DNA of 64,000 nucleotides, from NCBI GenBank assembly GCA_942493075.1, contig OW818681.1, positions 5,622,779-5,686,778 of the forward strand, read 5' to 3'. Origin of the DNA: an uncultured Verrucomicrobiota bacterium. GTDB taxonomy: Bacteria; Verrucomicrobiota; Verrucomicrobiia; Limisphaerales; UBA8199. This document shows positions 6,092 through 52,017 of this stretch, in pieces. The position numbers and the translations under genes are program-made. The stretch's first letter is position 1. Each line of letters begins with the position of its first letter. The notes beneath the pieces were generated by a model. That model was not told the origin of the DNA. It saw nothing but the letters and a program-made list of their open reading frames with translations, and made no database searches.

Positions 6092-6388
6092 AATGAAGCC
6101 ATTATGCGGCAAACACCCCGTACGGCAAGGCGGCTGAAGGGCTGTCTCTGGTCTTTTGAAAGTCCTTCGCTGACAACTTGGATGAAAGGCGCGTGATGAC
6201 AGGAAAGGTGCAAATCGCGCTCCACACTCTGATCCACTCCTCGAAATGGCCCTTGAACATCTCGTTGAATTCAGGACAGACCGGGATGGTAATGCATGAC
6301 TCAGGATTGTTGTTGGAAGCAGGATTTACCCATGCCGGCACGTATCGAAATCCGCACTGTCGGAAGCCTCCACGCCCCTTTAATTTCA

Positions 6389-6438
6389 TCCTGGTTCATC
6401 GGGTTGGCGCTCTCTGGCGCCAACCCGATGAACCAGGA
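6389..6438. repeat. perfect 22-bp-stem palindrome (hairpin), 6-nt loop
   Basis: tCCTGGTTCATCGGGTTGGCGC-tctctg-GCGCCAACCCGATGAACCAGGa. It lies 90 nt downstream of the stop of the sigma54 activator gene, in a 415-bp non-coding gap. No clear U-tract on either strand. Confidence 0.9.
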
Positions 6439-6528
6439 GTAGTTCTTGTTTCGGATCCTTTCCAACAGTACTGATCTAAAGTGCCACCCCCCCACGATTC
6501 AAACATCCCGTAAGCACCACACCGTTAG

Positions 6529-8031
6529 CTAGGCTGCCGGAGGCGCTGCCGATTCTTCCGGCTCTGTCTCGGCAGGCTCCTCAGTGGCGCTTCCTCCTGC
6601 GTACTCATTCAACTTGTTACGCAAAGTGCGGACACTGATTTCCAGAACCCGCGCTGCCTGGGTGCGGTTATTGTTGCAGCGGGCTAGCGCGGAAATGATG
6701 TGCTGCTTTTCAAGCTCCGCCAAGGTTAGGAAGTTCTGCGCGGGTGCGGGAGCCGCCGAGGGCTCGGGTGCAGCAGGTGCTGCTGCAGGAGCGCTGGTTT
6801 GCGGAACCGCGGACGCAGGCTGAGGTGTCAGAGGCTGTACCTCGCGGGGAATGACAGGCGCAAGAATAGTGGTCAGACCGAGATGCTCTCCTTCCACCAC
6901 GTGCCCATCGCCGCACAGAATCACGGCGCGTTCAATGACGTTCTGCAACTCACGCACATTGCCCGGCCATGAATGATTGCGCAAGGTGGCCAGGCAGGTA
7001 TCCGAGATTGCGCGCGCACCGACACCGTGTTTACGAGAGAAGCGCTGGAGGAAGCGGCTGGCCAAAACGGGGATATCCTCACGGCGCTCGCGTAAAGGCG
7101 GCACCTGAATCGGAACCACGTTTAGCCGGAAAAACAAGTCCTGCCGGAATTCCTTGCGCTCGACGCTCTGCTCAAGATGCCGGTTCGTCGTAGCCAGCAC
7201 GCGGACATCCACCTTGATGGTGCGATTGCCGCCCACGCGTTCGAACTCGCGTTCCTGCAGGACGCGCAGCAACTTGGCCTGCACCTGCGGGGAAATCTCG
7301 CTGATTTCGTCCAGCAGGATGGTACCTCCATGAGCGAGCTCAAACCGGCCCTCACGTTTGTTCAAGGCACCCGTGAAAGCGCCGCGCTCGTGACCGAAGA
7401 ATTCACTTTCGATCAGGTTTTCAGGGATGGCCGCGCAGTTAATCTTAATGAAAGGAGCATTGGCGCGCGGGCTCTCATTATACAGGGCGCGGGCGACTAA
7501 TTCTTTGCCGGTTCCGCTTTCGCCCTGGATCAAAGCAGTGGCTTGTGTGCGGCCGACTTTGCGAATGAGCTGCCGCAACTGTTCCATAGCGGGGCTATCC
7601 CCGAGCAACTCATAACCAGAGTCTTCGTCTTCGCGACTCAGGTATTGGTTCACCCGCAGGATTTGGGTGAAGTTCTCGGCTTTCTTCAGAACGATATCGA
7701 GCTGATCGATTGAGAACGGCTTGATCAGGTAGTCGAACGCACCATTGCGCATGCATTCCACGGCTGATTCAACCGAGCCGAAACCTGTGGTAATGACGGC
7801 GAGTGGGCGTTGCGGTCGACTTTGCAGCGCTTTGAGGAGATCGGTTCCTTCGCCATCGGGCAGGCGCACGTCGAGAAAGACAAGGTCGAAGTTGTCTTTA
7901 GCGAGGTATTCCTCGGCAGCAGCAAGGGTACTGACCGCCGCGACGTCATAGCGGCGAGCCCGGAGGTGTTGCTCCAAGCTTTTTCGGGCGATCAGTTCAT
8001 CTTCCAGGACGATAATTTTTTCAATGGGCAT
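6529..8031 (-). CDS. sigma54-dependent response regulator (NtrC family: REC + AAA+ + Fis-type HTH)
   Basis: REC domain from MPIEKIIVLEDE with acceptor in 'VFLDVRLPDG'. Walker A 'GESGTGKE', sigma54-contact 'GAFTGA', 'ESEFFGHERGAFTGA', and a C-terminal HTH 'NNRTQAARVLEISVRTLRNKL'. Start set at ATG 8031, since the track start at 8256 adds 75 non-homologous aa. Confidence 0.9.
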   Translation of the reverse strand: MPIEKIIVLEDELIARKSLEQHLRARRYDVAAVSTLAAAEEYLAKDNFDLVFLDVRLPDGEGTDLLKALQSRPQRPLAVITTGFGSVESAVECMRNGAFDYLIKPFSIDQLDIVLKKAENFTQILRVNQYLSREDEDSGYELLGDSPAMEQLRQLIRKVGRTQATALIQGESGTGKELVARALYNESPRANAPFIKINCAAIPENLIESEFFGHERGAFTGALNKREGRFELAHGGTILLDEISEISPQVQAKLLRVLQEREFERVGGNRTIKVDVRVLATTNRHLEQSVERKEFRQDLFFRLNVVPIQVPPLRERREDIPVLASRFLQRFSRKHGVGARAISDTCLATLRNHSWPGNVRELQNVIERAVILCGDGHVVEGEHLGLTTILAPVIPREVQPLTPQPASAVPQTSAPAAAPAAPEPSAAPAPAQNFLTLAELEKQHIISALARCNNNRTQAARVLEISVRTLRNKLNEYAGGSATEEPAETEPEESAAPPAA

Positions 8032-8036
8032 CGGAG

Positions 8037-8468
8037 CTAACCGGTCGCATGCCGGAGGTACAGACCGCTCACGAAATGGGGCTGCTGCGCCTGCGGGGGC
8101 GATAGGTGCCGAACCGGCAGAAAGCCACGGCGCGCCAGCAACTGTTCGTTGTCGCGATCCAACATGATGACTTTCATTGTGAGGTTCAGCAGGCTCTGGA
8201 TCAAATCTGAAATTCCACTTTCGGCAGATCGTTGGGCAGGCGTCATTTGCTGCCAAGCCGCCCGGTGGGGGGCGATGACCTTCAAAAACTCGTTTAAATT
8301 GGTCAGAAATCTCCGCCGGGACTCCTGCACTTCCTTCGGCGAGATCTCCGCTTCACTCTGCAGCCGCTCATTTTCCTGGGTCACAGTCTGCAACATGCCT
8401 TCGCAAGCACGATAATGTTGCAGCAGGACGTGGCGCAACGCGTCGGATGTAGAGGTGGGAGGATTCAT
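8037..8468 (-). CDS. hypothetical helical protein (weak FlgN-like resemblance)
   Basis: 143 aa from MNPPTSTSD. Its start overlaps the stop of the upstream TPR gene in ATGA (8465-8468), and its stop is 5 nt before the EBP start. Helical, Q/L/E-rich. The family assignment is not secure. Confidence 0.5.
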   Translation of the reverse strand: MNPPTSTSDALRHVLLQHYRACEGMLQTVTQENERLQSEAEISPKEVQESRRRFLTNLNEFLKVIAPHRAAWQQMTPAQRSAESGISDLIQSLLNLTMKVIMLDRDNEQLLARRGFLPVRHLSPPQAQQPHFVSGLYLRHATG

Positions 8469-9796
8469 TGTTGAACGGATGTTAACTCGGGCGCATGAGT
8501 CCGGTTCAGGCTGGCGCGACGCAACTCGGTGCTGGCAGCTTCCAAGCCGACTTTCCATTGGAGGTGTTCTTTACGCCATTTCGCCATCTCCAAGACCGCT
8601 TTTAGGCTGGGGGTGGCCGGGTTTGGCACCTCATTGCTGCGTTCCAGAACCTTTTTATAGTAGTCGGCTGCGTTAACAGGCTGATCCAGATGCTCATAGA
8701 TCAGGCCAACCTGATAAAGCACAGGGATTTGCCACGTCACACTCTTATCGAGGGCGGCGAGTGTTTGAAACACATCCAGGGCCTTAAGGAAATCACCTTC
8801 GCGATACAACTGGTTACCAATATCATTACCCGTTTTCTGCTGCCAATAGACCAAAGTGGCCCGGTCGCTGGTCTGTTGTTGCTTCAGGAGCAGCAATACC
8901 TGCTCAAGCGATTCGTCGTTGCGTCCCAACTGTTTATAAGCTGAGGCGGTTAGGAACCGCAATTCCGGCAACTCGGGCGCTTCGGGATACAGGTTGAAGA
9001 ACTCCTGGGCACGAGCGGTCACGTCTTGATAGCGCCCTTGGGCGGCAAGGGCTTGCACCAGCTTCATCAAAACCCGGGGCCGGTTAAGCGATTTGGAGTC
9101 GGACTTAAGCAGCTTGGCGAGGGACTGCTCGGCCTCACCTGTTTTCCCTTGAATGATCTGAGTATCAGCGATTTCCGTTTGTGCTTGGAGCACCAGTCTT
9201 TGGTAAAAATCGAATCGATCGTTTTTGATGACCAGGGAAGTGGTCATCACCGCGTAGAATTTGGTGAGAGCCATCTGGAAGAGGCCCATCTCCCGATAGA
9301 GCATACCCTGGCGAAAAAGAATCTCCGGAACGTCCGCATCCTGGGGCCACTTGGCTACGTACTGGGCGTAAATCTGCTGGCATCGGGGAAAATCTTTCTC
9401 GTCCAGAGCAATAAGCGCCAACTCAAGCAGGGCGGTTTTCTGCATGGCTTCAGGAACTCCCATCTCCAGGAGCCCAATGAAACCGCGTTTCGCTTCCTTA
9501 TTCTGCTTATCCAGACGCTGTTTACGGGCCAGATCCAACTGGATCTGGGCCATTTCCTCTGGGCTGCGCTGAGCACTCGGAACTTCTGGTGCCAAGAGGT
9601 TGGAGGAATTGAAAGACGAAGAGGACGCCTCCAACGTTGGATGGCGGGAGGCGACGGGTGTCTTCACACCCAGAGCAGGAGTAGCGAATGCCACAGCCTC
9701 ACCGGCCACGGCAGCACTAACCGCCGTAGCGAGTAAAGCAATGAGCAAAAGCAACTTAGCTTTGCCCAGGTTTTCACCTGGATGGTACATCATCAT
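8465..9796 (-). CDS. secreted tetratricopeptide-repeat (TPR) protein
   Basis: 443 aa. Signal peptide (KAKLLLLIALLATAVSAAVA). Repeated 34-aa A/Y/L-patterned helices (e.g. 'YQVGLIYEHLDQPVNAADYYKKVLE'). ATGA overlaps at both ends imply an operon. Confidence 0.7.
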   Translation of the reverse strand: MMMYHPGENLGKAKLLLLIALLATAVSAAVAGEAVAFATPALGVKTPVASRHPTLEASSSSFNSSNLLAPEVPSAQRSPEEMAQIQLDLARKQRLDKQNKEAKRGFIGLLEMGVPEAMQKTALLELALIALDEKDFPRCQQIYAQYVAKWPQDADVPEILFRQGMLYREMGLFQMALTKFYAVMTTSLVIKNDRFDFYQRLVLQAQTEIADTQIIQGKTGEAEQSLAKLLKSDSKSLNRPRVLMKLVQALAAQGRYQDVTARAQEFFNLYPEAPELPELRFLTASAYKQLGRNDESLEQVLLLLKQQQTSDRATLVYWQQKTGNDIGNQLYREGDFLKALDVFQTLAALDKSVTWQIPVLYQVGLIYEHLDQPVNAADYYKKVLERSNEVPNPATPSLKAVLEMAKWRKEHLQWKVGLEAASTELRRASLNRTHAPELTSVQQ

Positions 9797-10332
9797 GGAT
9801 CGATTAAACGATAGGTTGCCCGACTACCCGACCGGACCGGGGGCAACGGCGGCATAAAGGCAGGAGCTCCCAGGCTATTAGTAGCTTTAGGGCCTGCGCT
9901 CGAACCGTTTCTGAGTAAATCGAGGAGCATTTGCGCCGTTATTGTCGGTTGACTAACCTGAGCAGCAGTGTTGGTGCCAAAAAGTGCTGAATCCCAATTC
10001 TGTCCATCCAAATCCAACGGCTGGGTCTCTGTGGGGTTCGGCCCAATTTGACCCGGGGAAGGGTCTGCTGGAGCGCTGGCCAATTCCTGGACAGACGACT
10101 GGGTATTGGCGTTGTCTATGACTGCGGACGCAGTAAGCGCCGGAGAAGGCAGAGTTAGCGCGGCAAGCAGGGCTGGGGAGGCCGATTGCAGAGGCGCACG
10201 GAAACGCAATGAAGCCGGTTCACCTACAGTGAGATATGGCCTGGAGCCTGCCTGGCAATCCAGGGTAGCCACCACGAGCAGAGCAACGCACGTAAGTCTC
10301 TCAATTTCAAGCTGGTGCCAAGTTTTTGCCAT
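9793..10332 (-). CDS. hypothetical secreted Pro/Ala/Ser-rich protein
   Basis: 179 aa. N-terminal hydrophobic signal (LTCVALLVVATLDCQA) followed by low-complexity sequence. It overlaps the upstream gene by 26 nt and the downstream gene by 4 nt. No family recognised. Confidence 0.5.
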   Translation of the reverse strand: MAKTWHQLEIERLTCVALLVVATLDCQAGSRPYLTVGEPASLRFRAPLQSASPALLAALTLPSPALTASAVIDNANTQSSVQELASAPADPSPGQIGPNPTETQPLDLDGQNWDSALFGTNTAAQVSQPTITAQMLLDLLRNGSSAGPKATNSLGAPAFMPPLPPVRSGSRATYRLIDP

Positions 10333-11452
10333 TTAAATTGTCCAAGGCATCCGCGATCGTGCTAACGAACTGCCAATCCTTGGTCTCTTCGTAGTTTTTG
10401 CACTCGCGACAGACGGCCTCTGAGCCGATCATGGCGCAGCGAATGTCCAATTCTTGGCACAACTGTATCGTACTGAGACCCAGTTTGATCAAGGTGACAT
10501 CCGCAGATTTTAGCTGGCTTAAATCCAGCACTAACTTGGACAGCCCGGAATCGACTGCCTCGCACACCTTCGCCCGCAGGTTGATCGATACATCGTTGGC
10601 AACCGTCGGACCGAAGTTGGCAGGCAACCGCATAACCAGGCAGTTTTCCTGGCGCTGGAAGTACTTATAAGAAGTGTCCAGATTCAGGGCACGGGTGATC
10701 TTAAGCTTAAGATCCTCCATATCGATGGGCTTAGTGACAATTCCCGTGAAACCGAGCTGCTGAGCCCGCGCCTGTTCATCCGTGGCTGTTTTCACGCTCA
10801 TTGCCAAAATGGGTATGCTCTTGGTCTTCACGCTCGCGCGGAACATCTGGTAGAGCATAAAACCAGCGCTCTCCGGCAGAGATAGACTGACGAGAATGAC
10901 GTCCGGCAAGCGCTGGCTGCAATGATCCACGGCTTGGCCAGCCTGGGAGAGACCATGAACACTCCAGGGCGTCTCAGCAAATCCTGAAGAGATTTGATCG
11001 AGAATCACCGGCTTATCATCCACCACCAGGATGTGGAGAGGATCGTCAAAACGGCGTGCCTTAACCACAGCCTCGTTCTTCGCCTTGAGATCAATAATGC
11101 GGCCAACCCGCTCGATGATAATCTCCTCCTTGAAAGGCTTGATGAGATAGTCGCGCACACCGAGTTTGGCGATGCGCAGCACATTCTCGCGGCCGGATTC
11201 AGCCGTGAGCATGACGACAGGGATGCTGCGGAAATCTGGCTCACTCTTGAGCTTGGTCAGCATCTCCGCGCCATCCATTACAGGCATCGTGTAGTCGAGA
11301 ATGATAATGTCCGGCTTTTCCCGTTTAACAATCGCGAGGCCTTCGACGCCGTCGGCGGCTTCCAGGATCTCACAAGCAAACGGCTTGAAAGCGCGGGCGA
11401 CGATCATTCGGATCGTCTTGCTGTCATCAACGGTAAGAATCTTAGGTCCCAT
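10307..11452 (-). CDS. response regulator: canonical REC + degenerate REC (Asp->Ser) + C-terminal STAS (anti-sigma-antagonist-like) domain
   Basis: REC1 has DD (VDDS), acceptor D53 in 'IIILDYTMP', T in 'MLTAE' and K in 'LIKPF'. REC2 (aa ~139-255) keeps DD and K but has 'VILVSLSLP', with Ser189 (codon 10886-10888) at the acceptor position. Residues ~262-372 ('LVLDLSQLKSADVTLIKLGLS') look like a STAS/SpoIIAA fold. Confidence 0.85.
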   Translation of the reverse strand: MGPKILTVDDSKTIRMIVARAFKPFACEILEAADGVEGLAIVKREKPDIIILDYTMPVMDGAEMLTKLKSEPDFRSIPVVMLTAESGRENVLRIAKLGVRDYLIKPFKEEIIIERVGRIIDLKAKNEAVVKARRFDDPLHILVVDDKPVILDQISSGFAETPWSVHGLSQAGQAVDHCSQRLPDVILVSLSLPESAGFMLYQMFRASVKTKSIPILAMSVKTATDEQARAQQLGFTGIVTKPIDMEDLKLKITRALNLDTSYKYFQRQENCLVMRLPANFGPTVANDVSINLRAKVCEAVDSGLSKLVLDLSQLKSADVTLIKLGLSTIQLCQELDIRCAMIGSEAVCRECKNYEETKDWQFVSTIADALDNLNGKNLAPA

Positions 11453-11475
11453 AGAAACAAAGGGAATACTGGGTG

Positions 11476-12018
11476 TTAATGGGTGGAATTGCTTTTGACG
11501 AGCAGTTCCACAATGAGCCGCCGGTTCTGGAATTGATAGGCATACAGCCGACTTTCTGTTGAGCTGACCGCCTCAATAGAGAAATTACAGCCGCGCACCA
11601 CTGAAGGAATGGTGAGCACACAGGGAACGCCGCGATCAGAAAAGCGCGATTTCATATGGCCAACAATCATGTTCGCCATTTCGCCCATGGCATCGTTGAC
11701 CATTTCGTGGCCTTCGATCTCGCTCTCAGGCAAGCCGAGCAACTGGGCAGTGATATGTTTAGCAAAAGGCTCCGGCACATGGATATAAACGACACCGGCG
11801 ATCTGGCCGATAAAGCCAACGGCGCCAGCCACGTGGGTTTCTCCGTTGCGGTGATCTCCATCCGCCACAGAACCACAGCTCAAGTTCATATTGAGCATCG
11901 TGCCGAACACTTCTGTTACGGCTGAATTCACCAAAGCATCTATGTCCTGGAACATTGCGCATGGTTCATCGGCTGGAACTTTGGCTGACTTAAGCAAAAA
12001 AACGGGCTGGGCAAACAT
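11476..12018 (-). CDS. cheX: CheX-family CheY-P phosphatase
   Basis: 'AVTEVFGTMLNM', 'AGAVGFIGQIAGVVYI' and 'NDAMGEMANMIVG' match the CheX/CheC-like pattern (E-x2-N type motif 'GEMANM'). The true start may be ATG 11955 (MFQDIDALV). Confidence 0.75.
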   Translation of the reverse strand: MFAQPVFLLKSAKVPADEPCAMFQDIDALVNSAVTEVFGTMLNMNLSCGSVADGDHRNGETHVAGAVGFIGQIAGVVYIHVPEPFAKHITAQLLGLPESEIEGHEMVNDAMGEMANMIVGHMKSRFSDRGVPCVLTIPSVVRGCNFSIEAVSSTESRLYAYQFQNRRLIVELLVKSNSTH

Positions 12019-12092
12019 TTCTCCCTTAACAGACCTCGCGGTGGCAAAAAAAAGTTAAGCCGGGTGCCATTCTGTCGATATCCAAGCAACCT

Positions 12093-13004
12093 ATGGACAT
12101 TTTGGTCAAAACTTGGCAATGCAAACCGTTAGAGCACGGGATCATTGCCGATCGTTTGCAGGGTTGTGCCAGGCTCCCCTCACTGGGGAGCATCGACCGT
12201 GTTTTACGCGAGTTGGTTAACGCCGAGCAATGCTTCACCTCCCAGGTAGCCGACGTTATCCGTCGTGATCCGAGTATGACCACCCGGCTGCTCCGCCTGG
12301 TCAACTCTGTTTACTTTGGACTGGCTGTGCCGGTTAGCAGCATTGAAGATGCGGTTTTCTATCTCGGCGTCCGGCAGGTCCGGCAGCTCGCGATGGTGAC
12401 CCCAGTCATCGAAGATCTTCAAAAACTGGGATGTGGGCCTCAATTCACATGGCATGCCTTCTGGCAGCACTGTGTCGGGGTAGCGATTCTGACCCCCGAA
12501 ATCCTCGGGGATGTGCAAAGCTCAACTGACGAGACGGATTATGTCTCAGGCCTGCTACACGACGTGGGTAAGATCGTCATGGGCGCCATTTTTCCACAGC
12601 ACTTCGGCGAAATCCGGGAAGCGGTCGAATCCAGCCGCCGCTGCCTGCTGGAGATCGAGTCAGATGTCCTGGGAATGAATCATTGCGATTTGGGTGCGAT
12701 GTACCTGCGCAACCACCATCTGCCCACCGTGACCATAAAAGTCGCGCAGTATCATCATCAGCCGGAATTGGCCGGTGAACAGCGTCGCTACGTGGCAGCG
12801 GTGCAGATTGCAGACCTGCTGGTCCGCCAGGCCGGAATTGGCGACAGTGGCAACCCCATTTGTGAGGGTGAAGAAAACTCCAGCGCTGCGAGCGGCTGGA
12901 AAATACTATTTCCCCAGAATACCGAGCAGGAGCGTGCCATGGCACAGGCGAACCTGGATCGGAGTCTGGAGCGGCTGCCAGCCATACTTGAAGGGCTGGT
13001 ATAA
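12093..13004 (+). CDS. HDOD domain protein
   Basis: 'LPSLGSIDRVLRELVNAEQCFTSQVADVIRRDPSMTTRLLRLVNSVYFG' followed by 'GLLHDVGKIVM' and 'HCDLGAMYL' is the HDOD signature (HD-related output domain). Confidence 0.8.
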   Translation: MDILVKTWQCKPLEHGIIADRLQGCARLPSLGSIDRVLRELVNAEQCFTSQVADVIRRDPSMTTRLLRLVNSVYFGLAVPVSSIEDAVFYLGVRQVRQLAMVTPVIEDLQKLGCGPQFTWHAFWQHCVGVAILTPEILGDVQSSTDETDYVSGLLHDVGKIVMGAIFPQHFGEIREAVESSRRCLLEIESDVLGMNHCDLGAMYLRNHHLPTVTIKVAQYHHQPELAGEQRRYVAAVQIADLLVRQAGIGDSGNPICEGEENSSAASGWKILFPQNTEQERAMAQANLDRSLERLPAILEGLV

Positions 13005-13040
13005 GCGCCGCGGGTTTAGTGAAGTTTAAATTGAGGCAAC

Positions 13041-13862
13041 ATGCGTACCGTCAGTGATGATCAATCAGCAATACAGTATATTATTGATCTAATATACGAA
13101 CGTTCACGCATCCGACTCCACGAGGGGAAGGAGCCTTTAATCAGGGCACGTCTGGGCAAACGCATGCGCTTGCATGGCTATGCGAGTCTGGGAGAATACT
13201 GCGCTTTCCTGCAACACGGCGCCGATGAAGACGAAATCGGCCACGTCGTGGACGCTCTCACCACGAATTTCACACACTTCCTGCGAGAAGAGGATCAGCT
13301 CCGGTTTCTGGTTGAGAAAGCACTGCCGAGCCGCCCGGGGGCTGCGTCGCGAAAATTCAGCATCTGGAGCGCCGGGTGCGCCACCGGGGAAGAGCCTTAC
13401 AGCATGACTTTTTTCCTGGATGAGTTCTTTCCTCTCAGCCAGGGCTGGAATTGGAACATCCTGGCCACTGACATCTCCACGCGGGCTTTAAAAACAGCGG
13501 AAAGCGGCGTGTACGCCGCCGAAAAACTGAAAAGCCTGTCGGACTCGTGGGTGCGTAAATACTTTCAAAAGGGGCACGGCGCCTCTGAGGGCCTGTTCCG
13601 GGTGAAACCCTATCTGCGCGAGCGCATCCATTTCCGCCAGGAAAACCTGACAGGCGAGCATCCGGGCAGCGACCAGTTTGATGTGATTTTCTGCCGTAAC
13701 GTGATGATCTACTTTGATCGTCAAACTCAGCATAAGCTGGTGAACCATTTGTGCCGGTACCTAGCTCCTGAGGGATACCTGCTGATAGGCCATTCGGAGA
13801 GCCTGACAGGTGTGACCGCGCCCTTGCGCTGTCTGCGGCCCAGTTTCTTTCAGAAGACGTAA
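13041..13862 (+). CDS. cheR: chemotaxis protein methyltransferase CheR
   Basis: 'LTTNFTHFLRE', the SAM-binding motif 'IWSAGCATGEEPYS', and 'FDVIFCRNVMIYFD'. Confidence 0.9.
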   Translation: MRTVSDDQSAIQYIIDLIYERSRIRLHEGKEPLIRARLGKRMRLHGYASLGEYCAFLQHGADEDEIGHVVDALTTNFTHFLREEDQLRFLVEKALPSRPGAASRKFSIWSAGCATGEEPYSMTFFLDEFFPLSQGWNWNILATDISTRALKTAESGVYAAEKLKSLSDSWVRKYFQKGHGASEGLFRVKPYLRERIHFRQENLTGEHPGSDQFDVIFCRNVMIYFDRQTQHKLVNHLCRYLAPEGYLLIGHSESLTGVTAPLRCLRPSFFQKT

Positions 13863-13865
13863 ACC

Positions 13866-14378
13866 ATGCCAGCCCCTAGTTTAACCGGGTTCGAACATAA
13901 AGTGGTGGTAGGTGTGGGGGATATGGCGGTGTCCAATAACCCGGACCTGACATTAGTGACGTATTCCCTGGGGTCCTGCCTGGGGATAGTGATTTTTGAC
14001 CCAGTGGCGCGGGTGGGTGGTCTGCTGCATGTTATGCTGCCGGATTCAACCATCGATACGGCGAAAGCCGAAGCGCGACCGGGAATGTTTGTCGACACGG
14101 GGGTGCCGGCGCTATTTCGCGCGGCCTACCAGCTTCGAGCCGACAAACGGCGGGTGCGCATTTATGTAATCGGCGGGGCGCAGATTATGGATAACAGCGG
14201 TTTCTTTAACATTGGGAAGCGCAATTGCGAAGCGCTGGACGCTTTGCTTGCGCAGCACCAGTTGGCTGTCACCGCCAAGGAGATCGGCGGTTTGCAAAAC
14301 CGCACCGTTTTTTTCCGTCTCAACACAGGCCAGGTAACCTTGAAAATGTCCGGTCAGCAAACTGAAGTTCCGTTATGA
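13866..14378 (+). CDS. cheD: chemoreceptor glutamine deamidase CheD
   Basis: 'LVTYSLGSCLGIVIFDPVARVGGLLHVMLP' contains the catalytic Cys and His context of CheD. The gene starts 3 nt after the cheR stop. Confidence 0.85.
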   Translation: MPAPSLTGFEHKVVVGVGDMAVSNNPDLTLVTYSLGSCLGIVIFDPVARVGGLLHVMLPDSTIDTAKAEARPGMFVDTGVPALFRAAYQLRADKRRVRIYVIGGAQIMDNSGFFNIGKRNCEALDALLAQHQLAVTAKEIGGLQNRTVFFRLNTGQVTLKMSGQQTEVPL

Positions 14379-15220
14379 ATCTTTTGGACGAAATCATCGA
14401 CAAGGCTACCTATCTGCCCGCGTTTCCAAGAAATGTTCCCCAACTCCTGGATTTGCTCAACAAAGAGGAAGTGGATGCGGACGAGGTGGTGAACCTGATT
14501 GCCTTTGACCCTTCCCTCACCGCCAACGTGATGCGGCTGTGCAATAGCGCGATGATGGGTGGCTCGCCGGCAACTGATTTGCACGAAGCCGTTCTGCGCC
14601 TGGGGTTCTCCGAGGTTTACCAACTCGTGGTGGCCTTGAGCAGCGCCAAAGTGCTCATGCCCGCTCAAAAGGGTTATGGCCTGGATGCCACAGAGCTTTG
14701 GCAGCACTCGGTAGCCACCGCGCTCGCGGCCAAATCGCTTGCGGAACAAACCGGGGAGGATGCCAGCCTGCTCTTCACAGCCGGCCTCTTGCACGACATC
14801 GGCAAGGTGGTTCTCGCACATACCCTGGAATCCAAATACACAGCTTTGCTGGCGGAAATCACCGAACATCAGCATTCGCTGCTTGAAGCCGAGAAAAACC
14901 TCCTGGGGGTTCAGCACGCCGAACTCGGCGGCAGGGTCCTGGCCCGCTGGCATTTCTCAGCCGTCACAGTCGCGGCCGTCTGGTTTCATCATGATCCCGC
15001 GCTGGCTAAACCTCACGCGCGCATCGCGTCTCACGTGTACCTGGCCAACATGATCGCACATTTCATGGGACACGGTTACGGTCACATGCCCTTTGCGATG
15101 CGTGGACGGGAGGAAGCCCTTGAACTGGCCGGCATCACGACACATGACTTGCCGCGTCACATGTTAAACACTTTCGAGTCCCTCGAGAAGCTCAACGGGC
15201 TTGTCTATTTGGGAAGTTGA
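14375..15220 (+). CDS. HDOD domain protein (second copy, inside che operon)
   Basis: 'LPAFPRNVPQLLDLLNKEEVDADEVVNLIAFDPSLTANVMRLCNSAMMG', 'GLLHDIGKVVL' and 'HAELGGRVL'. The start overlaps the cheD stop in ATGA (14375-14378). Confidence 0.8.
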   Translation: MNLLDEIIDKATYLPAFPRNVPQLLDLLNKEEVDADEVVNLIAFDPSLTANVMRLCNSAMMGGSPATDLHEAVLRLGFSEVYQLVVALSSAKVLMPAQKGYGLDATELWQHSVATALAAKSLAEQTGEDASLLFTAGLLHDIGKVVLAHTLESKYTALLAEITEHQHSLLEAEKNLLGVQHAELGGRVLARWHFSAVTVAAVWFHHDPALAKPHARIASHVYLANMIAHFMGHGYGHMPFAMRGREEALELAGITTHDLPRHMLNTFESLEKLNGLVYLGS

Positions 15221-15223
15221 CTT

Positions 15224-16333
15224 ATGTCGAAGCCCATTCGCGTATTGATCGTTGACGACTCGGCTCTGGTCCGCCAGGTGCTCTCTCGCTCGCTCTCGCA
15301 CTTCGCGGATATCGAGGTCATCGGCACCGCCATGGACCCTTACGTGGCCCGAGACAAAATTCTGCAACTTGAGCCGGACGTTATCACGCTGGACATCGAG
15401 ATGCCACGAATGGATGGGATCACCTTCCTGCGCTTGCTCATGAAGCATCGACCGATGCCGGTAATCATCATGAGTTCCCTGACTGCCGCCGGGTCGAGCA
15501 AGGCCTTGGAAGCGCTGCGCTCAGGAGCCATCGAGGTTTTGGAGAAGCCCCGCGGCTCAATGTCTGTCTTCGAAGACAACGAAAGGCTTGCGGAGGTTAT
15601 TCGCGCAGCAGCCCGATCCCGTCCGCCGGTTCCTGAACCTGAGCCGGAGTCCGCAGTGGCCATTCAGCATCGACCGCTTTCCGAATCGGCACGGCGGAAC
15701 TATAATCCGCGCCAACTCATTCTGATGGGTGCCTCAACCGGTGGCACGGAAGCCTTGCGCAAGGTGCTGACGCAATTGCCAGGCGATTTGCCGGGCATCT
15801 GTATTGTGCAACACATCCCAGCCCAGTTCTCGGCTGCGTTTGCGCAACGTTTGAACGAGGTATGCCAGATGGAAGTGCGCGAGGCGCGCTCGGGCGATAC
15901 GGTGGAACCAGGCTTGGCTCTGGTAGCTCCCGGTGGGAGTCATCTTCTCCTTCAACGGAAAGGCGCCGGTTACGGGGTCATCCTTAACGAAGGTCCGCGC
16001 GTGCATTACCAGCGTCCTGCTGTGGATGTTCTCTATAACTCAGCCGAAAAACTCGGTGCCGCGCCCCACTGCCTGGCTGTCCTCCTGACGGGCATGGGAG
16101 CCGATGGCGCCGCCGGCATGCTCGGCTTGCGCAAAGCCGGGGCCGTTACCCTCGCGCAGGACGAGGCCAGTTGCGTTGTTTACGGGATGCCCAAAGAAGC
16201 AGCCCGAATGGGGGCGGTGCAACAAGTCGTGTCGCTGACCGACATGCCAAAGGCAATTGAGCATCATTGCCGCGCCATACAAACCCGCGTTCCCGGTCAA
16301 TTTCAAGCTCAGCAAACCCAATCCGCGATATGA
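15224..16333 (+). CDS. cheB: protein-glutamate methylesterase CheB (REC + methylesterase)
   Basis: REC domain 'IRVLIVDDS...VITLDIEMPRMDG'. Catalytic domain 'LILMGASTGGTEAL', 'IVQHIP' and 'GADGAAGMLGLRKAGAVTLAQDEASCVVYGMP'. Confidence 0.9.
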   Translation: MSKPIRVLIVDDSALVRQVLSRSLSHFADIEVIGTAMDPYVARDKILQLEPDVITLDIEMPRMDGITFLRLLMKHRPMPVIIMSSLTAAGSSKALEALRSGAIEVLEKPRGSMSVFEDNERLAEVIRAAARSRPPVPEPEPESAVAIQHRPLSESARRNYNPRQLILMGASTGGTEALRKVLTQLPGDLPGICIVQHIPAQFSAAFAQRLNEVCQMEVREARSGDTVEPGLALVAPGGSHLLLQRKGAGYGVILNEGPRVHYQRPAVDVLYNSAEKLGAAPHCLAVLLTGMGADGAAGMLGLRKAGAVTLAQDEASCVVYGMPKEAARMGAVQQVVSLTDMPKAIEHHCRAIQTRVPGQFQAQQTQSAI

Positions 16334-18438
16334 ACTATTCCAACGCTCTCCAACTCGCCGAAAAGATCGCTTTGGAGCTGGTCTTTGCCCAACCCGGGCG
16401 CGACGAAGGACTCCTGCCCGTCAACAGCCTGCTCAGCGACCTCAGTGAACTGGTCGCATCGGAACCAGCGGTGCCAGACCCCATCCGGCAGGGGTTGACG
16501 ATCGCACGCGAATGCGTGGACGATGCACTGGTCGCCGGCGGCTTTACTCCCCATCTGCTGGAGCGGCTCTCCGCCCTGGTGTCATGGCTCCCGGTTGCTT
16601 TGCGGGCCTGGGAACAAAGTGGTTCAATCCCGGAAGTGCCGCGAGGTTCCGGAGTGAGCGCTGGAGCCAGCCCGGCTACTGTCTCCGCAGGACCCACGGC
16701 AGCCGCCACGATAGTCGAGGAAATGGTCCTTAATCTCAAGGAAAACGAAGACTTGCTACGGGAGTTCATTGAGGAATCAAAAGAACACCTGCAGGAAATC
16801 GAACTCGGCGTCCTCGCGCTCGAAGAGAACCCGGAAGACGAAGAATCGCTGAATGCGATTTTCCGTGCGTTTCATACTTTAAAAGGTGGTTCAGGATTCC
16901 TGAACCTTGGCCCGATCAATCGCCTGGCTCACGAGCTGGAATCCCTGCTCGAACTCGCGCGGCAGCATCAACTCCGTCTCGAAGGCAACAGCATCAACCT
17001 GGTGCTCGGAGGGGCCGATATACTCAAAGCCATGGTGGAAGCCGTGCAACGCCAGGTCACTGGCGCTGATCCCCAGCAACCGATCCCCACTTCGATCCAG
17101 CCTTGGATTGAGCGGGTTCAGGCAGCCGTCAAGGCCTGCCTGAACGGCGAGACTGAGAGTGCAGATCGAGAAGAGCCCGCCGCGTTTACTCCCACCATTG
17201 TAGCCAACCCGAAGGCAGAGGAATCCGCATCGGCCAAAGCTGAAGCCCAATCCAAATCCAACAGCGGCATCGTCAAAGTGGACACGAGCAAGCTCGATGG
17301 TTTGATGGATCTGGTCGGCGAAATGGTAGTGGCCCAATCGCAAGTCGCCCAGAATGTGGATTCGGTGGCGATGCAAAACCAACAACTCATGCGAAACCTG
17401 GCCCAACTGCGCCGGATTACGAATGAATTGCAGCGCACAGCCATGTCTCTGCGCATGGTGCCCATCCGAGGAACGTTCCAGAAGATGACTCGCCTGGTGC
17501 GCGATCTCTCGGCGAAGGCCGGCAAGATGGTCGAGCTCCAAATCACCGGTGCGGATACCGAACTGGACCGCAATATCATCGAGGAAATCAACAGTCCCCT
17601 GGTCCATATGATCCGCAACGCCGTGGATCACGGCTTGGAAACCCCGGAAGCGCGCACCGCCAAGGGCAAGCATCCCAAGGGCACCATCTGGTTGCGCGCG
17701 TTTCACCAGGGAGGCAGCGTGGTTATCGAAATAGCCGATGACGGCGCGGGCCTGGACCGCGAGCGGATCTTGAGCAAAGGAATCGAACGCGGCCTGGTGC
17801 AGGAAGGCCAGCAGCTTGCCGAGCGTGACATCTTCGGCCTAATCTTCCAGCCCGGTTTCTCCACGGCCCAGCAAGTCACCGAAATATCCGGACGCGGCGT
17901 TGGCATGGACGTTGTGCGGCGGAATATCAACCGTTTGCATGGCAAGATCGAGATTGAATCGGAGCACGGCAAAGGCTCCACGTTCTCCATCTTCCTGCCT
18001 TTGACTTTGGCGATCATAGACGGCCTGGCCGTGAGCGTTGGCCAGGAGCGGTTCCTGCTCCCGACCTTGTCGGTGCGCGAATCCTTCCGACCGACGGCCG
18101 ACATGCTCAACAGTATTCATGAGCGGGCTGAGACAGTGAACGTGCGCGGACAAATCCTGCCGCTGTTGCGTTTGCATGAGCATTTCAACATCGAGCCTGA
18201 ATCGCGCGACCCCCTCAAGTCCATCATCGTTGTGGTGGAAGCCGAAGGGCGTGATCACTGCCTCATGGTCGATCGGCTTCTGGGGAAACAGGAGATCGTG
18301 ATCAAAGGCCTGGGACCCACTTTCCAGGACAACCGCTACCTGGCTGGGGCCGCCATCCTGGGCGATGGCCGTGTGAGCCTCATCCTGGATGTCATTTCGC
18401 TGGTCAGCAGCACGCCTTTACAGGCATTGGCGGGTTAA
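16330..18438 (+). CDS. cheA: chemotaxis histidine kinase CheA with ~130-aa N-terminal extension before the Hpt domain
   Basis: Hpt 'FRAFHTLKGGSGFLNL', dimerisation 'VKVDTSKLDGLMDLVGEMVV', HATPase 'HMIRNAVDHGLE ... DDGAGLD ... GRGVGMDVV', and a C-terminal CheW-like P5 domain. Start set at ATG 16330, which overlaps the cheB stop (ATGA). Confidence 0.9.
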   Translation: MNYSNALQLAEKIALELVFAQPGRDEGLLPVNSLLSDLSELVASEPAVPDPIRQGLTIARECVDDALVAGGFTPHLLERLSALVSWLPVALRAWEQSGSIPEVPRGSGVSAGASPATVSAGPTAAATIVEEMVLNLKENEDLLREFIEESKEHLQEIELGVLALEENPEDEESLNAIFRAFHTLKGGSGFLNLGPINRLAHELESLLELARQHQLRLEGNSINLVLGGADILKAMVEAVQRQVTGADPQQPIPTSIQPWIERVQAAVKACLNGETESADREEPAAFTPTIVANPKAEESASAKAEAQSKSNSGIVKVDTSKLDGLMDLVGEMVVAQSQVAQNVDSVAMQNQQLMRNLAQLRRITNELQRTAMSLRMVPIRGTFQKMTRLVRDLSAKAGKMVELQITGADTELDRNIIEEINSPLVHMIRNAVDHGLETPEARTAKGKHPKGTIWLRAFHQGGSVVIEIADDGAGLDRERILSKGIERGLVQEGQQLAERDIFGLIFQPGFSTAQQVTEISGRGVGMDVVRRNINRLHGKIEIESEHGKGSTFSIFLPLTLAIIDGLAVSVGQERFLLPTLSVRESFRPTADMLNSIHERAETVNVRGQILPLLRLHEHFNIEPESRDPLKSIIVVVEAEGRDHCLMVDRLLGKQEIVIKGLGPTFQDNRYLAGAAILGDGRVSLILDVISLVSSTPLQALAG

Positions 18439-18520
18439 AATCTCTAAAGTAACCGTCCCGATCAGCCGATAAAAAACTACAAGCCTCCCTCGGTGGAGGT
18501 TTGAACTTAAGCGCAAAATT

Positions 18521-19051
18521 ATGGCAGCCAATCTCATTCAATCGAATCCTGCTAGGACCCAGACCCACTCGGGCGCAGGCAAGTATTTGACCTTCATTCT
18601 GGGCAGGGAAACCTATGGCATCGAGGTGCTAAAGATCCGCGAGATCATCCGCATGGTGGATATCACGCTGGTTCCGCAAATGCCTAATTATATCCGCGGC
18701 GTGATCAATTTGCGTGGCAAGATCATCCCCGTGGTGGATCTGCGCGTCAAGTTCGGCCTGAGCTGTGCCGAGACCGCCGAACGCACCTGCATCATAGTGG
18801 TCCAGGTGGACACGGCTGATAAATCCAGCATGCTCATGGGCCTGGTCGTGGATCAAGTAGAGGAAGTGCTCAACATCGCTAACGAAGAGATCGAGGAAAC
18901 CCCGGATTTCGGCGCCAAGCTCGATACCAGCTATCTGCTGGGCATGGCCAAAGTGAAGGGCAAAGTGGCCTCCCTGCTTGATATCGATCGAGTGCTCGCG
19001 GCCGCTGCGCTTGAAAAGCTCACGGAAGCCGCCTGCATCGCGGAAGCATAA
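18521..19051 (+). CDS. cheW: coupling protein CheW
   Basis: 176 aa. '[22 protein letters not shown]' and '[18 protein letters not shown]' form the typical CheW-like domain. Confidence 0.9.
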
Positions 19052-19106
19052 TCTTCAAAAGGGTCGGCGGGGCTTTCGGTGGGGGTTGCCTTCCAGCAAA
19101 GTCCTT

Positions 19107-21020
19107 ATGACACTTGGAAAACGAATCGGTTGGGGTCTAGGCTCAATCCTGACCCTCATGGGGCTGATCGGTGGCTTGGCCGTGGTGAACATGGACCGCT
19201 CCAGCCGGGCCGCGCGAACTCTCGCAGGAGCCTACGTTCCGCAAGCTACCCTGGGCGGCGAACTCGGAGAAGCTGCTTCCGAAGCCCAGCTCGCAGCGAC
19301 CAGCTTCGGCTACACTGCCGAAACTAATTTTCATCTCAATGCTTCCCAACAACTGGCCGCCTTGCGTGCCGCGTTGAATTCAGCGAAGAACCTGGCTCAA
19401 ACCCAAACCTGCCTCATTCAACTCGGCGGGCAGGTCGCGAGCCTGGAACCCTTGCTGGCCAGTGCCCAATCGGATCTGGAAGCCACCGCTGCCCAGAACC
19501 GCCGCATGGTCGAACTCCGTAATCAGCTTGAGGAGAAAGCAGAGGTTTTCATCTACAACATCGAAATGTACGTGGGTGATCTTGAGGATACGCTAACACG
19601 AGACATCCAGGCGGGCGCATCCGTCGAGGTGCTCAAGAAGCACGCAACCCGCATCAGCCTGGCTTCCGAAATTCGCGTAGCCGGTAACGCCGCACGTGTG
19701 GCGATTTTCAAATCACTGGCACTGCGTCAACCCGACCTCCTGAACGCTGGCGTCACTCAGTTCGAAAAACTCCAGGCCCACCTGAACGAACTGTTCCCTC
19801 TGGAAACCGACCCGGAGCACTTGCGCGAGCTAAAGGATGTGGCAGATGCCGCTGGGGAGTATGGCCTGGCGATGACCCAGATCCAGGTGGCTCAGCAGGA
19901 ATTGGGCAAGCTCGCATCCAAACGGACTCAGACGGCAGACGCCATGGAAACCCTGGTGGACCAAGCCGTCACCCAAAGCCTCTCCCAGACATTGCTGGCC
20001 GCTGATGAAACAAGCAACCGGCTCACACGCGGTTCTAGATTGCTGACCGGTGGTTTGACTGTCGCCTTTTTAGCGGGTGTGGTCATGGCCTGGTGGCTCA
20101 CACGCAACACGAAGGGACATCTCGCCGCTGTAACTCAACGCCTGGAGGAAGGCGCCCAACAGGTAGCTGTGGCTTCCACCCAACTCTCCGAATCCAGCAA
20201 CTCCCTGGCACAGAGCGCCAGCCAGGAAGCGGCTTCCCTTCAAGAAACCAGCTCCTGCCTGGAAGAAATGGCGTCCATGATCCGCCAGAGCTCCGAACAT
20301 GCGCAAGCCGCCAGGGAACAATCGTCCGCTGCAAACGCGGCAGCCCTGGAAGGAGCCAATGGCATGCGAAAAATGTCCGAGGCCATGTCGGCGATCGGTG
20401 GATCGAGTGAGAACGTCAGCCGGATTGTAAAAACCATCGATGAGATTGCATTCCAGACCAACCTGCTGGCCTTAAACGCCTCTGTCGAAGCTGCTCGTGC
20501 CGGCGAGGCTGGCCGGGGATTTGCCGTCGTAGCTAACGAGGTGCGGGCGCTGGCCCAACGTAGCGCTCAAGCCGCAAGGGAGACAGCCGAGAAGATCGAG
20601 GATTCTGTCGCGAAAAGCGCTTACGGCATCCAGATCAGTCTCGAAGTGGATGAGCACCTTAAAACCATCGCTTCGAAAACCAGCGATGTGGATGGCCTAA
20701 TCAACCGCGTAGCCCAGGCGCTTAAAGAACAGGCCCAGGGGGTTAACCAATTGAACACGACGGTGGCCCAAATGGAACAGGCGACCCAGTCCAACGCAGC
20801 CAATGCGGAAGAAACAGCCAGCGCTGCGGAGGAACTCAATGCTCAGACCTTGATGTTCACCGAGGCTGTCCAGGAGCTCTCGGACCTTGCAGGTTCCGAA
20901 TGCAAGACGAAGCAACAAGCTCTGCCGTGCCCACAGGTCACAGATCACTCCATCTCTGCCAATCGTTTCCGAAACGCCCCAACTTCCCCAGCATCCCGCC
21001 TACGCGCTGTGAGGGCTTGA
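19107..21020 (+). CDS. methyl-accepting chemotaxis protein (two TM helices, ~300-aa periplasmic helical sensor)
   Basis: Start set at ATG 19107 ([23 protein letters not shown]). Second TM '[18 protein letters not shown]'. The signalling hairpin is highly conserved: '[43 protein letters not shown]'. Confidence 0.9.
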
Positions 21021-21034
21021 ACCGCCAGGCTGGA

Positions 21035-24609: not shown

Positions 24610-24882
24610 GTGGGAACCATTGGCAACGAGCGCGGGATGCTTGGCAGTTCAACCGGAACATCCGGCTGGGTTTTACCCATCCGGAGTGGGTTCTGCCCCC
24701 CATTTCACCTCGTGAATCGTTGTAATAATTTGCTTGCAACCGGCGGGGTAATGGCTCATGTTCCGGGAACAAATACGTTTTAGGCACCGTGTGCCTGTAT
24801 GCTTGATCGATTACTGCATGAATAAGCTTCAACCGGTGAGGGCGTCTTGAGTCGCCCCTATCCTCCACGTTCGGCTTCTCCG

Positions 24883-26709: not shown

Positions 26710-26715
26710 GAATGA

Positions 26716-38402: not shown

Positions 38403-38404
38403 TG

Positions 38405-41080: not shown

Positions 41081-41108
41081 AAAGAGGGGAGATCAACTGC
41101 GATCCAAC

Positions 41109-41588: not shown

Positions 41589-41606
41589 AAGTCCATTTTT
41601 TTAAAG

Positions 41607-49742: not shown

Positions 49743-49773
49743 GGTAGTTATTCAGGCAGGGCCGGTAAAAGCG

Positions 49774-51069: not shown

Positions 51070-51129
51070 CTTGTTGTCGTAAAGAAAAATCTAATCCTTA
51101 TCCAATCGCAACGCTGTGTGAAGTGTTTT

Positions 51130-52005: not shown

Positions 52006-52017
52006 GTTGAAAATGAA

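Follow-up and report, generated by a model that had tools for sequence, protein, structure and literature searches.

The 64,000-nt stretch of DNA analysed here (the window) comes from an uncultured Verrucomicrobiota bacterium and carries, in two divergent arms, a chemosensory gene cluster that is probably a flagellum-linked chemotaxis and flagellar-regulation gene set belonging to the flagellar regulon. Its response regulator would be an extended CheY, in which an intact receiver (REC1) is followed by a degenerate receiver (REC2 or REC*) and a STAS domain. This REC-REC*-STAS protein, hereafter RRS, is paired with CheX, and its arm ends with the gene of a sigma54 enhancer-binding protein (EBP). 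The domains, predicted folds, synteny and promoter motifs on which this reading builds are results of the analysis, and the coordinates of all features are collected in Table 1.

A putative CheY with a C-terminal extension

REC1 of RRS displays the complete receiver signature (Asp53, Thr83, Tyr102 and Lys105). It is 62–69% identical to the single-domain CheYs (126–134 aa) encoded beside cheX in other Verrucomicrobiota-type che clusters, here termed sister clusters (L025, L026, L028 and L030), and 29–33% identical to the other intact receivers of the window, i.e., those of CheB, EBP and an unrelated single-domain REC protein; with its own degenerate neighbour REC2 it shares 19% identity. On these values REC1 is classed as a CheY orthologue. 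An initial annotation of the stretch had called the cluster CheY-less, which is true of a single-domain CheY but not of the receiver as such: judged by its sequence, a CheY is present and bears a C-terminal REC*-STAS extension.

The pairing with CheX points in the same direction. In 23 of the 27 loci compared, the gene immediately before RRS is cheX, whose product is predicted to be a CheY-P phosphatase of the CheC/CheX/FliY family, with an active-site string (DAMGEMAN-x21-P) one residue shorter than the textbook D/S-x3-E-x2-N-x22-P. Moreover, two loci hold the fusion in the cheY slot beside cheA, in the orders cheR-cheD-HDOD-cheB-cheA-cheX-RRS-cheW (L021) and cheW-mcp-cheX-(CheY-STAS, 249 aa)-cheA (L084). 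RRS, which had been listed earlier among the possible targets of CheA, is thus a strong candidate for this role.

The scan of one genome per species yielded 24 full-length RRS loci from Limisphaerales, Verrucomicrobiales, Opitutaceae and related groups, and all genes of the window were placed on the orthologous loci by tblastn. In the Limisphaerales-type layout, to which the window belongs, HDOD1 diverges from cheX-RRS-s179-TPR-h143-EBP (s179 and h143 being proteins of 179 and 143 aa); in the Opitutaceae-type layout, EBP-cheX-RRS is followed by cheW, cheA, HDOD, cheD, cheB and cheR. The synteny of the left arm with the che genes, which mattered to the initial annotation, recurs in several relatives, as the che core lies beyond HDOD1 in L001, L003, L081 and L082.

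In L006–L012 and L083, the left arm and HDOD1 have no adjacent che core, which would suit a separation of the two arms into independent neighbours: an ordinary che operon on the right and a flagellar or envelope module on the left, joined by shared sigma28 regulation only, with RRS and EBP phosphorylated by kinases encoded elsewhere. The EBP beside che3 in Myxococcus indeed has its own kinase, CrdS (PMC3147164). Nevertheless, most loci have cheX, a member of a CheY-P-specific phosphatase family, in front of RRS, the che operon of L021 and L084 contains the fusion, and REC1 is related to CheY by orthology, all of which makes such independence very unlikely.

Flagellar genes and sigma28-type promoters

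The orthologous module of relatives has flagellar genes around it in at least 12 of 28 Verrucomicrobiota places (L005, L012, L013–L017, L023, L024, L081, L083 and the P0099 contig). In L083 and L012, the genes flgB, flgC, fliE, fliF and fliG come after EBP on its strand, joined in L083 by fliH, fliI and fliJ; on the P0099 contig, fliD and two flagellins come next. The cheB side of L081 borders on fliS and a flagellin fragment, and two flagellins precede EBP(-cheX-RRS) in L013–L016 and L023, accompanied by fliS in L023 and by fliD in L014. cheR stands back to back with flgB-flgC-fliE in L014 and L017, and on the complete chromosome of L014, 21 kb form a single flagellar-chemotaxis supercluster. 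Likewise, a metagenome-assembled genome (MAG) of Desulfobacteraceae (L027) encodes flagellin, HDOD, a 247-aa CheY-STAS protein, two successive EBPs and flgB through fliI.

Scanning with the sigma28 (FliA) consensus gave eight matches in the window versus about two in shuffled sequence. Four elements are favourably located, namely those before cheX, in the cheA-cheW gap and near the start of a second MCP gene (46382–46410), and the variant before HDOD1. The element before cheX is found at the same place in L002, L003, L006, L011, L081, L082 and L083 and, on visual inspection, in L001 and L012; the variant before HDOD1 has its counterpart, TCAAC/TCAAG-N-CCGATAA, in an unchanged position in L002, L003, L012, L081 and L082. 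As a back-to-back pair, the two elements occupy the same positions of the divergent region in L002, L003, L006, L011, L012, L081, L082 and L083. Its reading as a FliA promoter is supported by further copies of the motif, one before a flagellin gene in L016 and others among the flagellar genes (flagellin, fliS) of L081. These elements are motif matches, whose fixed positions across diverged loci are hard to ascribe to chance. A scan for sigma70 promoters from 6000 to 21500 returned fewer matches than shuffled sequence and none in the divergent region.

The initial annotation had favored an alternative cellular function (ACF) of the Che pathway, with an output through EBP-driven sigma54 transcription and/or STAS partner switching and no control of the motor. 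Several features of the cluster are in line with it: there is no single-domain CheY, the EBP receiver is intact with no adjacent kinase, the output domain of RRS is of a non-motor type, and no flagellar or pilus gene occurs among the large open reading frames (ORFs) scanned to about 53 kb (four large ORFs beyond 53.4 kb lay outside the Pfam scan). Furthermore, neither in Vibrio nor in Pseudomonas is the motor under the control of the ancestral F7 clusters that have STAS genes (PMC7184735). Still, an ACF pathway is marked by the lack of any flagellar or pilus association, and what was found are orthologous modules embedded in flagellar gene clusters, conserved sigma28-type promoters before both arms and a REC1 orthologous to genuine CheYs. 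This flagellar linkage is documented inside the window by the promoter motifs as the sole evidence. In addition, the CheA of the window has no fused receiver, unlike WspE and ChpA, and it differs in the same respect from CheA3 of Myxococcus (PMC3147164). The initial annotation itself had named a motor cluster or a cognate CheY as the partner that would speak against its proposal; motor genes adjoin the module in relatives, and the CheY is REC1. A pathway without a link to motility is contradicted by these findings and is considered very improbable.

The receivers and the STAS domain of RRS

In REC2, a Ser occupies the phospho-acceptor Asp site. Residues 1–258 of RRS resemble the REC-REC* stem of PleD, the best match both in sequence (PDB search) and in structure (AlphaFold and Foldseek). 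The STAS domain was the weakest part of the first observation because its Pfam score of 15.9 bits falls below the cut-off of 22.6. As receivers dominated the Foldseek search with the full-length model and left the C-terminus uninformative, the C-terminal 124 aa required a separate AlphaFold model (pLDDT 89.7, built on 13 homologues). The top 24 PDB matches of this model are all STAS proteins, including RsbS, SpoIIAA, RsfB and TM1442, with TM scores of 0.65–0.78 and RsbS as the best (E 5.7e-6, TM 0.73/0.78), and the model superposes on the beta-beta-alpha-beta-alpha-beta-alpha-(beta)-alpha STAS fold. Two homologues of RRS (P0241 and P0379) exceed the Pfam STAS cut-off, and a third (P0110) has a precomputed PF01740 match. 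Searching PDB sequences with a profile of the domain produced weak matches only (E 0.5–2), six of seven being STAS proteins. The model, its Foldseek matches and the scores of P0241 and P0379 therefore settle the assignment, so that the domain proposed initially is borne out by predicted structure, the Pfam score itself being sub-threshold.

The RRS family is conserved in Verrucomicrobiota and uncharacterised. It comprises more than 120 sequence clusters at 65–98% identity, nearly all of about 381 aa, and the organism-labelled ones are Verrucomicrobiota; an exact-sequence look-up of the window RRS returned no record. The exhaustive profile search with the STAS domain retrieved just 211 representative clusters among 1.84 billion proteins. 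Matches of whole-protein length carry the domain at the C-terminal end, and many shorter ones resemble metagenome fragments. Among the members examined, the architectures REC-STAS, REC-REC*-STAS, REC-REC*-STAS-STAS, REC-x-REC*-STAS, REC-HD_5-REC*-STAS and REC-STASx3 occur, and one member has an extra VWA domain. Shorter CheY-STAS forms come from the Desulfobacteraceae MAG (L027, 247 aa) and an unclassified metagenome contig (L084, 249 aa). A literature search on REC-STAS or CheY-STAS fusions found nothing relevant. As a side observation, the REC-HD_5-REC*-STAS member is P0277, and an HD_5 (HD-GYP-like) protein is also encoded between cheD and cheB in the Opitutaceae-type locus L014 (16075–16983, minus strand); together, they hint at a tie of HD/HDOD proteins to the REC*-STAS module.

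With regard to its regulation, Val319 of RRS replaces the phospho-serine at the site equivalent to Ser58 of SpoIIAA, none of the 20 aligned relatives has a Ser there, and neither a serine kinase nor a PP2C phosphatase is encoded in the cluster. Accordingly, control of the STAS domain by the fused receiver is the simplest reading.

Such control might be directed mainly at gene expression or assembly and not at the motor, even within a cluster of the flagellar regulon. The STAS domain of phospho-RRS would then bind or release h143, an anti-sigma28 factor such as FlgM, or EBP, the activity of receptor and CheA would feed back on sigma54- or sigma28-dependent flagellar genes, and any control of the motor would rely on another CheY encoded elsewhere. 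STAS is a classical partner-switch module, for which HsbA-FlgM and CrsA-CrsR are precedents, and REC*-STAS as a pair follows N-terminal modules of several kinds. RRS and EBP are neighbours in two gene orders in Verrucomicrobiota, the CheY-STAS gene of L027 also precedes EBPs and flgB...fliI, and h143 is encoded 5 nt upstream of the EBP gene. However, h143 is absent in Opitutaceae-type loci and EBP in L007–L010, so that no single partner accompanies RRS everywhere; the position in the cheY slot and the pairing with cheX fit an ordinary fast chemotaxis regulator equally well, and an interaction of RRS with a regulator is itself a prediction. A predominantly regulatory role of RRS is, on balance, rather unlikely.

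The sigma54 activator and the accessory proteins

EBP has the features of an NtrC-type activator, namely the acceptor Asp54, an AAA+ domain with GAFTGA and a Fis-type helix-turn-helix (HTH), and it scores below the NCBIfam equivalog cut-offs of FlbD (383 vs 750 bits) and FlgR (333 vs 750). In relatives, its orthologues lie directly upstream of sigma54-promoted flgB operons: the -24/-12 motif TGGCAC-N5-yTGCT was found immediately 5' of flgB in four of four scanned loci with this gene (L083, L012, L014 and L017). These promoters next to EBP fit its function as a flagellar activator, and EBP is considered a probable flagellar-gene activator. The scan found no sigma54 motif in the divergent region, and the che operons are therefore not obvious targets of EBP. 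The sigma54-like element inside s179 has a counterpart at the equivalent position of the close relative L001 (TGGCACTAATGTTGCT), and since the window holds ten sigma54-like matches of that quality, chance may explain it. No kinase gene is encoded near EBP; CheA is not thereby its kinase, given the example of Che3 and CrdS (PMC3147164). Directly downstream of the EBP gene lies an alpha/beta-hydrolase gene (5183–6112) with a sigma54-like TGGAGC-N5-TTGCA about 97 nt 5' of it (6209–6224, minus strand), which could be a local EBP target or due to chance.

The three proteins encoded between RRS and EBP are less readily assigned. In the alignment of 14 positional orthologues, s179 shows the motifs YLPxxGPxxLRF near the N-terminus and FxPPxPP...SSATY at the C-terminus, which flank a variable linker of low complexity. 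Its hidden Markov model (HMM) matches 15 loci, plus a weak contig-truncated match in L004, all of Limisphaerales type; the h143 HMM is likewise confined to such loci, every one of which has an h143 orthologue. Pfam and NCBIfam gave zero matches for s179 and none of significance for h143. The 1,283 h143 homologues found are lineage-restricted and mostly 'hypothetical', and one distant member carries PF05130 FlgN. The FlgN match of h143 is weak (E 0.086 for the window protein; two of eight orthologues match, best E 0.007), and the h143 profile had no match among PDB sequences. Taken as a hint, h143 is possibly FlgN-like. The TPR protein is YbgF/BamD-like by sub-cut-off NCBIfam matches, keeps its position in orthologous loci and is apparently exported. 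Functions of the trio as periplasmic flagellar accessories, chaperone or anti-activator are guesses.

The chemosensory core and its class

MCP, CheW, CheA, CheR and CheB provide the complete core of a flagellar (F) system, the CheY-type receiver of which is supplied by REC1 of RRS, with phosphotransfer predicted from sequence. The functional motifs of CheX, CheA, CheB, CheD and EBP are intact. CheA has no fused receiver, and about 140 aa before its Hpt domain (16330–16750) match no family; in L082, the corresponding stretch (4644–5066) is annotated as a gene of its own, 140 aa long. The cytoplasmic domain of the methyl-accepting chemotaxis protein (MCP) aligns gap-free over 257 residues with Tsr 257–513, which equals the 36H length, and its best NCBIfam matches are Vibrio Aer2 and then enteric MCPs. 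In a crude ranking against solved structures, CheA, CheW and CheR score higher with the enteric (F7) proteins of E. coli or Salmonella than with those of Thermotoga and Bacillus or with the F6 protein CheR1 of Pseudomonas.

General definitions of the chemosensory classes were used here, alongside the account of Ortega et al. According to the latter, ancestral F7 clusters combine 36H receptors, cheD, one or two anti-sigma-factor antagonist genes and a serine phosphatase, and their function is stated as not known (Ortega et al., 2020; PMC7184735). The cluster of the window is probably F-type and apparently F7-like in ancestry, which is not meant as a class assignment.

Both stand-alone HDOD genes are retained in relatives. 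HDOD1 is divergent from cheX-RRS in every Limisphaerales-type locus reaching that side, and HDOD2 lies near cheD and cheB in L001, L003, L014, L017, L021, L025, L081 and L082. A literature search on HDOD in che operons found nothing relevant.

Proposed mechanism

From these observations, we infer the phosphotransfer steps, the action of CheX on RRS, the targets of EBP and the existence of a STAS partner. MCP, CheW and CheA would act as the sensor, with CheR, CheB and CheD in charge of adaptation. CheA would phosphorylate Asp53 in REC1 of RRS, and CheX would remove the phosphate. RRS would thus serve as the CheY of this lineage, to which a degenerate receiver as in PleD and a STAS domain have been added. 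Phosphorylation may rearrange or dimerise the REC-REC* stem as in PleD and thereby alter the binding of STAS, in which case phospho-Asp would take the place of the kinase/phosphatase control of classical partner switches, the STAS domain having lost the usual phospho-serine. Candidates for the bound partner are h143, EBP, the flagellar switch and a protein of the anti-sigma or anti-activator type. EBP itself would activate flgB-type operons through sigma54, in the manner of the flagellar regulators FlgR, FlrC and FleR. As a further step, it may tentatively be proposed that CheY-REC*-STAS is a phospho-aspartate-gated partner switch, its state set by CheA and CheX, that tunes flagellar expression or assembly instead of or besides motor switching; this is a possibility held with clear reservation.

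A number of points weigh against a flagellum-linked chemotaxis set. The main fact that it leaves unexplained is the occurrence of HDOD1-RRS-s179-TPR-h143 in L007–L010 without cheX, EBP or visible flagellar genes, i.e., the RRS module can exist outside a flagellar or che context. The scanned ORFs of the window contain no flagellar gene, with the four large ORFs mentioned above outside the scan, and the close relatives L001 and L082, which have the same layout, show none in flanks of up to 10 kb. Downstream of a sigma28 (late) promoter, EBP occupies an unusual place for an activator of early rod genes, and the content of the cluster does not identify the kinase that phosphorylates it. If REC1 is packed on REC* as in PleD, its alpha4-beta5-alpha5 face, with which CheY contacts FliM, may be occupied, so that direct binding to the motor is uncertain. 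Besides, the description as F-type and F7-like rests on receptor length, crude best matches and genomic context.

Comparison with known systems

The ancestral F7 clusters (Vibrio cholerae cluster III, Pseudomonas aeruginosa Che2 and Shewanella) share with the window the 36H receptor, CheD between cheR and cheB and STAS in the che cluster; they feature separate STAS genes with a serine phosphatase, a single-domain CheY and a soluble key receptor of the Aer2 type, contain no CheX, HDOD or EBP, and exert no motor control (PMC7184735). In the window, by contrast, STAS is fused to CheY via a degenerate REC and is devoid of the phospho-serine, the receptor is transmembrane, and there are ties to flagellar genes and sigma28. 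Chemotaxis outside the model phyla is poorly described, and here the only CheY-like receiver of the cluster carries a STAS output. If STAS is the functional output, this would constitute a new signalling route for a Che pathway and might explain the STAS genes of ancestral F7 clusters. The fusion would then serve as a 'Rosetta stone', suggesting a direct partnership between the F7 CheY and the F7 STAS proteins of V. cholerae cluster III and P. aeruginosa Che2. If RRS simply binds the motor, what remains is a normal chemotaxis operon whose CheY is unusual.

Caulobacter PleD (REC-REC*-GGDEF) likewise consists of a phosphorylatable first receiver followed by a degenerate adaptor receiver. Phosphorylation drives the dimerisation of PleD, a logic that RRS is likely to have in common. 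RRS differs from it by an output through STAS and not GGDEF, a REC1 of CheY lineage, CheX as the partner phosphatase and the che/flagellar context. With SpoIIAA/AB, RsbV/W, P. aeruginosa HsbA-FlgM and Shewanella CrsA-CrsR, RRS shares the STAS fold, and HsbA and CrsA are STAS proteins linked to flagellar or che-cluster contexts. In contrast to these antagonists, RRS has Val at the phospho-serine site and no serine kinase or PP2C in its cluster, and control would be exerted via the fused receiver. In the spirochaetes Borrelia and Treponema, CheX acts as the CheY-P phosphatase and co-occurs with CheD; systems of this type use single-domain CheYs and are not known to have HDOD or STAS components, unlike the window.

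EBP has the REC-AAA+-HTH build of the NtrC type in common with FlgR, FlrC, FleR and FlbD, and its orthologues stand upstream of sigma54-promoted flgB-flgC-fliE-fliF operons. It is distinguished from these activators by the lack of an adjacent kinase of the FlgS, FlrB or FleS kind, by reaching no equivalog cut-off and by what appears to be co-transcription with cheX-RRS under a sigma28 promoter. Myxococcus xanthus Che3-CrdA, which the initial annotation had offered as the closest precedent, likewise places an NtrC-like activator beside a che cluster lacking a stand-alone cheY. There, CheA3 is a hybrid of CheA and REC with the role of a phosphatase, CrdA has the dedicated NtrB-like kinase CrdS, CrdB is an OmpA-domain lipoprotein, and the pathway governs development in an organism without flagella (PMC3147164). 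Che3 is hence a poor analogue, as Pfam detects neither CheA-REC nor a HisKA kinase nor an OmpA domain in the cluster of the window.

Apart from RRS, the two HDOD genes in a che operon offer a handle on the function of HDOD domains, and the orphan sigma54 activator in an apparently sigma28-driven operon offers one on the wiring of the flagellar hierarchy in bacteria of the Planctomycetes-Verrucomicrobia-Chlamydiae (PVC) group. No paper on this gene combination was found in the literature search, in agreement with the earlier statement that no characterised system combining STAS, HDOD and CheX/CheD was known.

Gene inventory and layout

The inventory of the initial annotation and its layout of two divergent operons proved correct (ORF map and Pfam): all 14 of 14 genes were confirmed with their domains, and every junction it had listed was verified in the sequence. 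The left arm comprises EBP, h143, the TPR protein, s179, RRS and CheX on the minus strand, and the right arm HDOD1, CheR, CheD, HDOD2, CheB, CheA, CheW and MCP on the plus strand. ATGA overlaps join cheD/HDOD2, cheB/cheA, TPR/h143 and s179/TPR; gaps of 3 nt separate cheR/cheD and HDOD2/cheB, RRS and s179 overlap by 26 nt, and h143 and EBP are 5 nt apart. The absence of a single-domain CheY and of adjacent flagellar or pilus structural genes also held for the cluster and its immediate flanks, where no single-domain REC, flagellar or pilus gene was found.

Two starts were revised. CheX most likely begins at Met22 (11955), because its orthologues have 158–160 aa and the conserved sigma28-type promoter lies within the first 63 nt of the longer ORF. 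The divergent region reported between the arms exists but measures about 137 bp (11956–12092) and not 74 bp. The MCP gene is present as described, with a probable start at 19107 instead of the TTG at 18978. Scans of the window with Rfam and for tRNAs gave zero matches.

Table 1. Genes, promoter elements and hairpins of the cluster (window coordinates; aa, amino acids)
Feature	Position	Strand	Basis and remarks
Perfect hairpin, 20-bp stem	6390..6437		Terminator-like scan; about 90 nt 3' of EBP stop, likely end of leftward unit
EBP, 500 aa	6529..8031	-	Pfam REC, Sigma54_activat, AAA_lid_14 and HTH_8
h143, 143 aa, cytoplasmic	8037..8468	-	5 nt upstream of EBP gene; no Pfam/NCBIfam family
TPR protein, 443 aa	8465..9796	-	Pfam TPR families; N-terminal hydrophobic signal-like segment
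s179, 179 aa	9793..10332	-	Alignment of 14 positional orthologues; predicted exported, signal-like N-terminus
Sigma54-like -24/-12 element TGGCACCAACACTGCT	9964..9979	-	Inside s179, about 170 nt 5' of TPR start; low confidence
RRS, 381 aa	10307..11452	-	Pfam 2x REC; PDB matches PleD and CheY; AlphaFold and Foldseek
CheX, 159 aa from Met22	11476..11955 (ORF to 12018)	-	Pfam CheX, E 4.8e-22
Sigma28-type promoter TTAAGT-N14-GCCGATGA	11966..11993	-	Motif scan; 10 nt 5' of CheX Met22
Sigma28-type promoter variant TTAAG-N15-TCGATAT	12055..12081	+	Sequence reading; 11 nt 5' of HDOD1 start
HDOD1, stand-alone, 303 aa	12093..13004	+	Pfam HDOD, E 5e-47
CheR methyltransferase	13041..13862	+	Pfam CheR_N and CheR; best PDB match Salmonella CheR
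CheD deamidase	13866..14378	+	Pfam CheD; catalytic Cys and His present (GSC...H)
HDOD2, stand-alone	14375..15220	+	Pfam HDOD, E 1e-51
CheB methylesterase	15224..16333	+	Pfam REC and CheB_methylest; N-terminal receiver
CheA, 702 aa	16330..18438	+	Pfam Hpt (HTLKG), dimerisation, HATPase and CheW domains; best PDB match E. coli CheA
Sigma28 promoter TAAAGT-N14-GCCGATAA	18445..18472	+	Motif scan; near-perfect consensus, cheA-cheW gap
Short GC-rich hairpin CCTCCCTCGGTGGAGG	18484-18499		Between sigma28 motif and cheW start; possible attenuator or mRNA-stability element
CheW	18521..19051	+	Pfam CheW; best PDB match E. coli CheW
MCP	19107..21020 (ORF from 18978)	+	Pfam MCPsignal; two transmembrane segments, periplasmic region of about 290 aa, no HAMP

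Other genes of the window and of related loci

Convergent on the MCP gene, a ParA-like ATPase gene (AAA_31) overlaps an AlbA_2/HATPase_c_4 (Schlafen-like) gene by 4 nt (21035–23253, minus strand). The pair is absent from all orthologous loci and looks like an insertion, possibly related to defence or mobile elements. A role of the ATPase 3' of MCP as a ParC-type array-positioning protein was rejected on account of its convergent orientation and its absence from the orthologous loci. Further on, recA and infC (23482–25605) are followed by HypD and an AIR-synthase-related (HypE-like) gene (25654–27807, minus strand).

A two-component cluster at 37749–43655 (minus strand) encodes a LuxR-type response regulator, an 891-aa PAS hybrid histidine kinase with two receivers and a 5TM-LYT PAS histidine kinase; it includes the single-domain REC protein already mentioned (159 aa, 41109–41588), which is 29% identical to REC1 of RRS. 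A second MCP gene (44479–46476, minus strand; 665 aa, MCPsignal) is found at a distance of 23 kb from the cluster. Just inside its longest ORF there is a sigma28-like motif (46382–46410); the real start is thus probably further downstream, and the gene may share the regulon. Like the HypD block, a housekeeping arginine biosynthesis run of OTCase, class-III aminotransferase, amino-acid kinase and ArgJ occupies 48846–53352 (minus strand).

Among the related loci, L009 has VWA/DUF58 and TPR proteins as neighbours of the module, and L008 and L004 carry the label 'Akkermansia muciniphila', probably through a binning or labelling error. In the Chthoniobacterales MAG L033, a gene at 10028–11392 encodes a CheY-like receiver (MHPKILTVDDSKTIR...) with about 330 C-terminal aa that appear glutaminase-like by eye.

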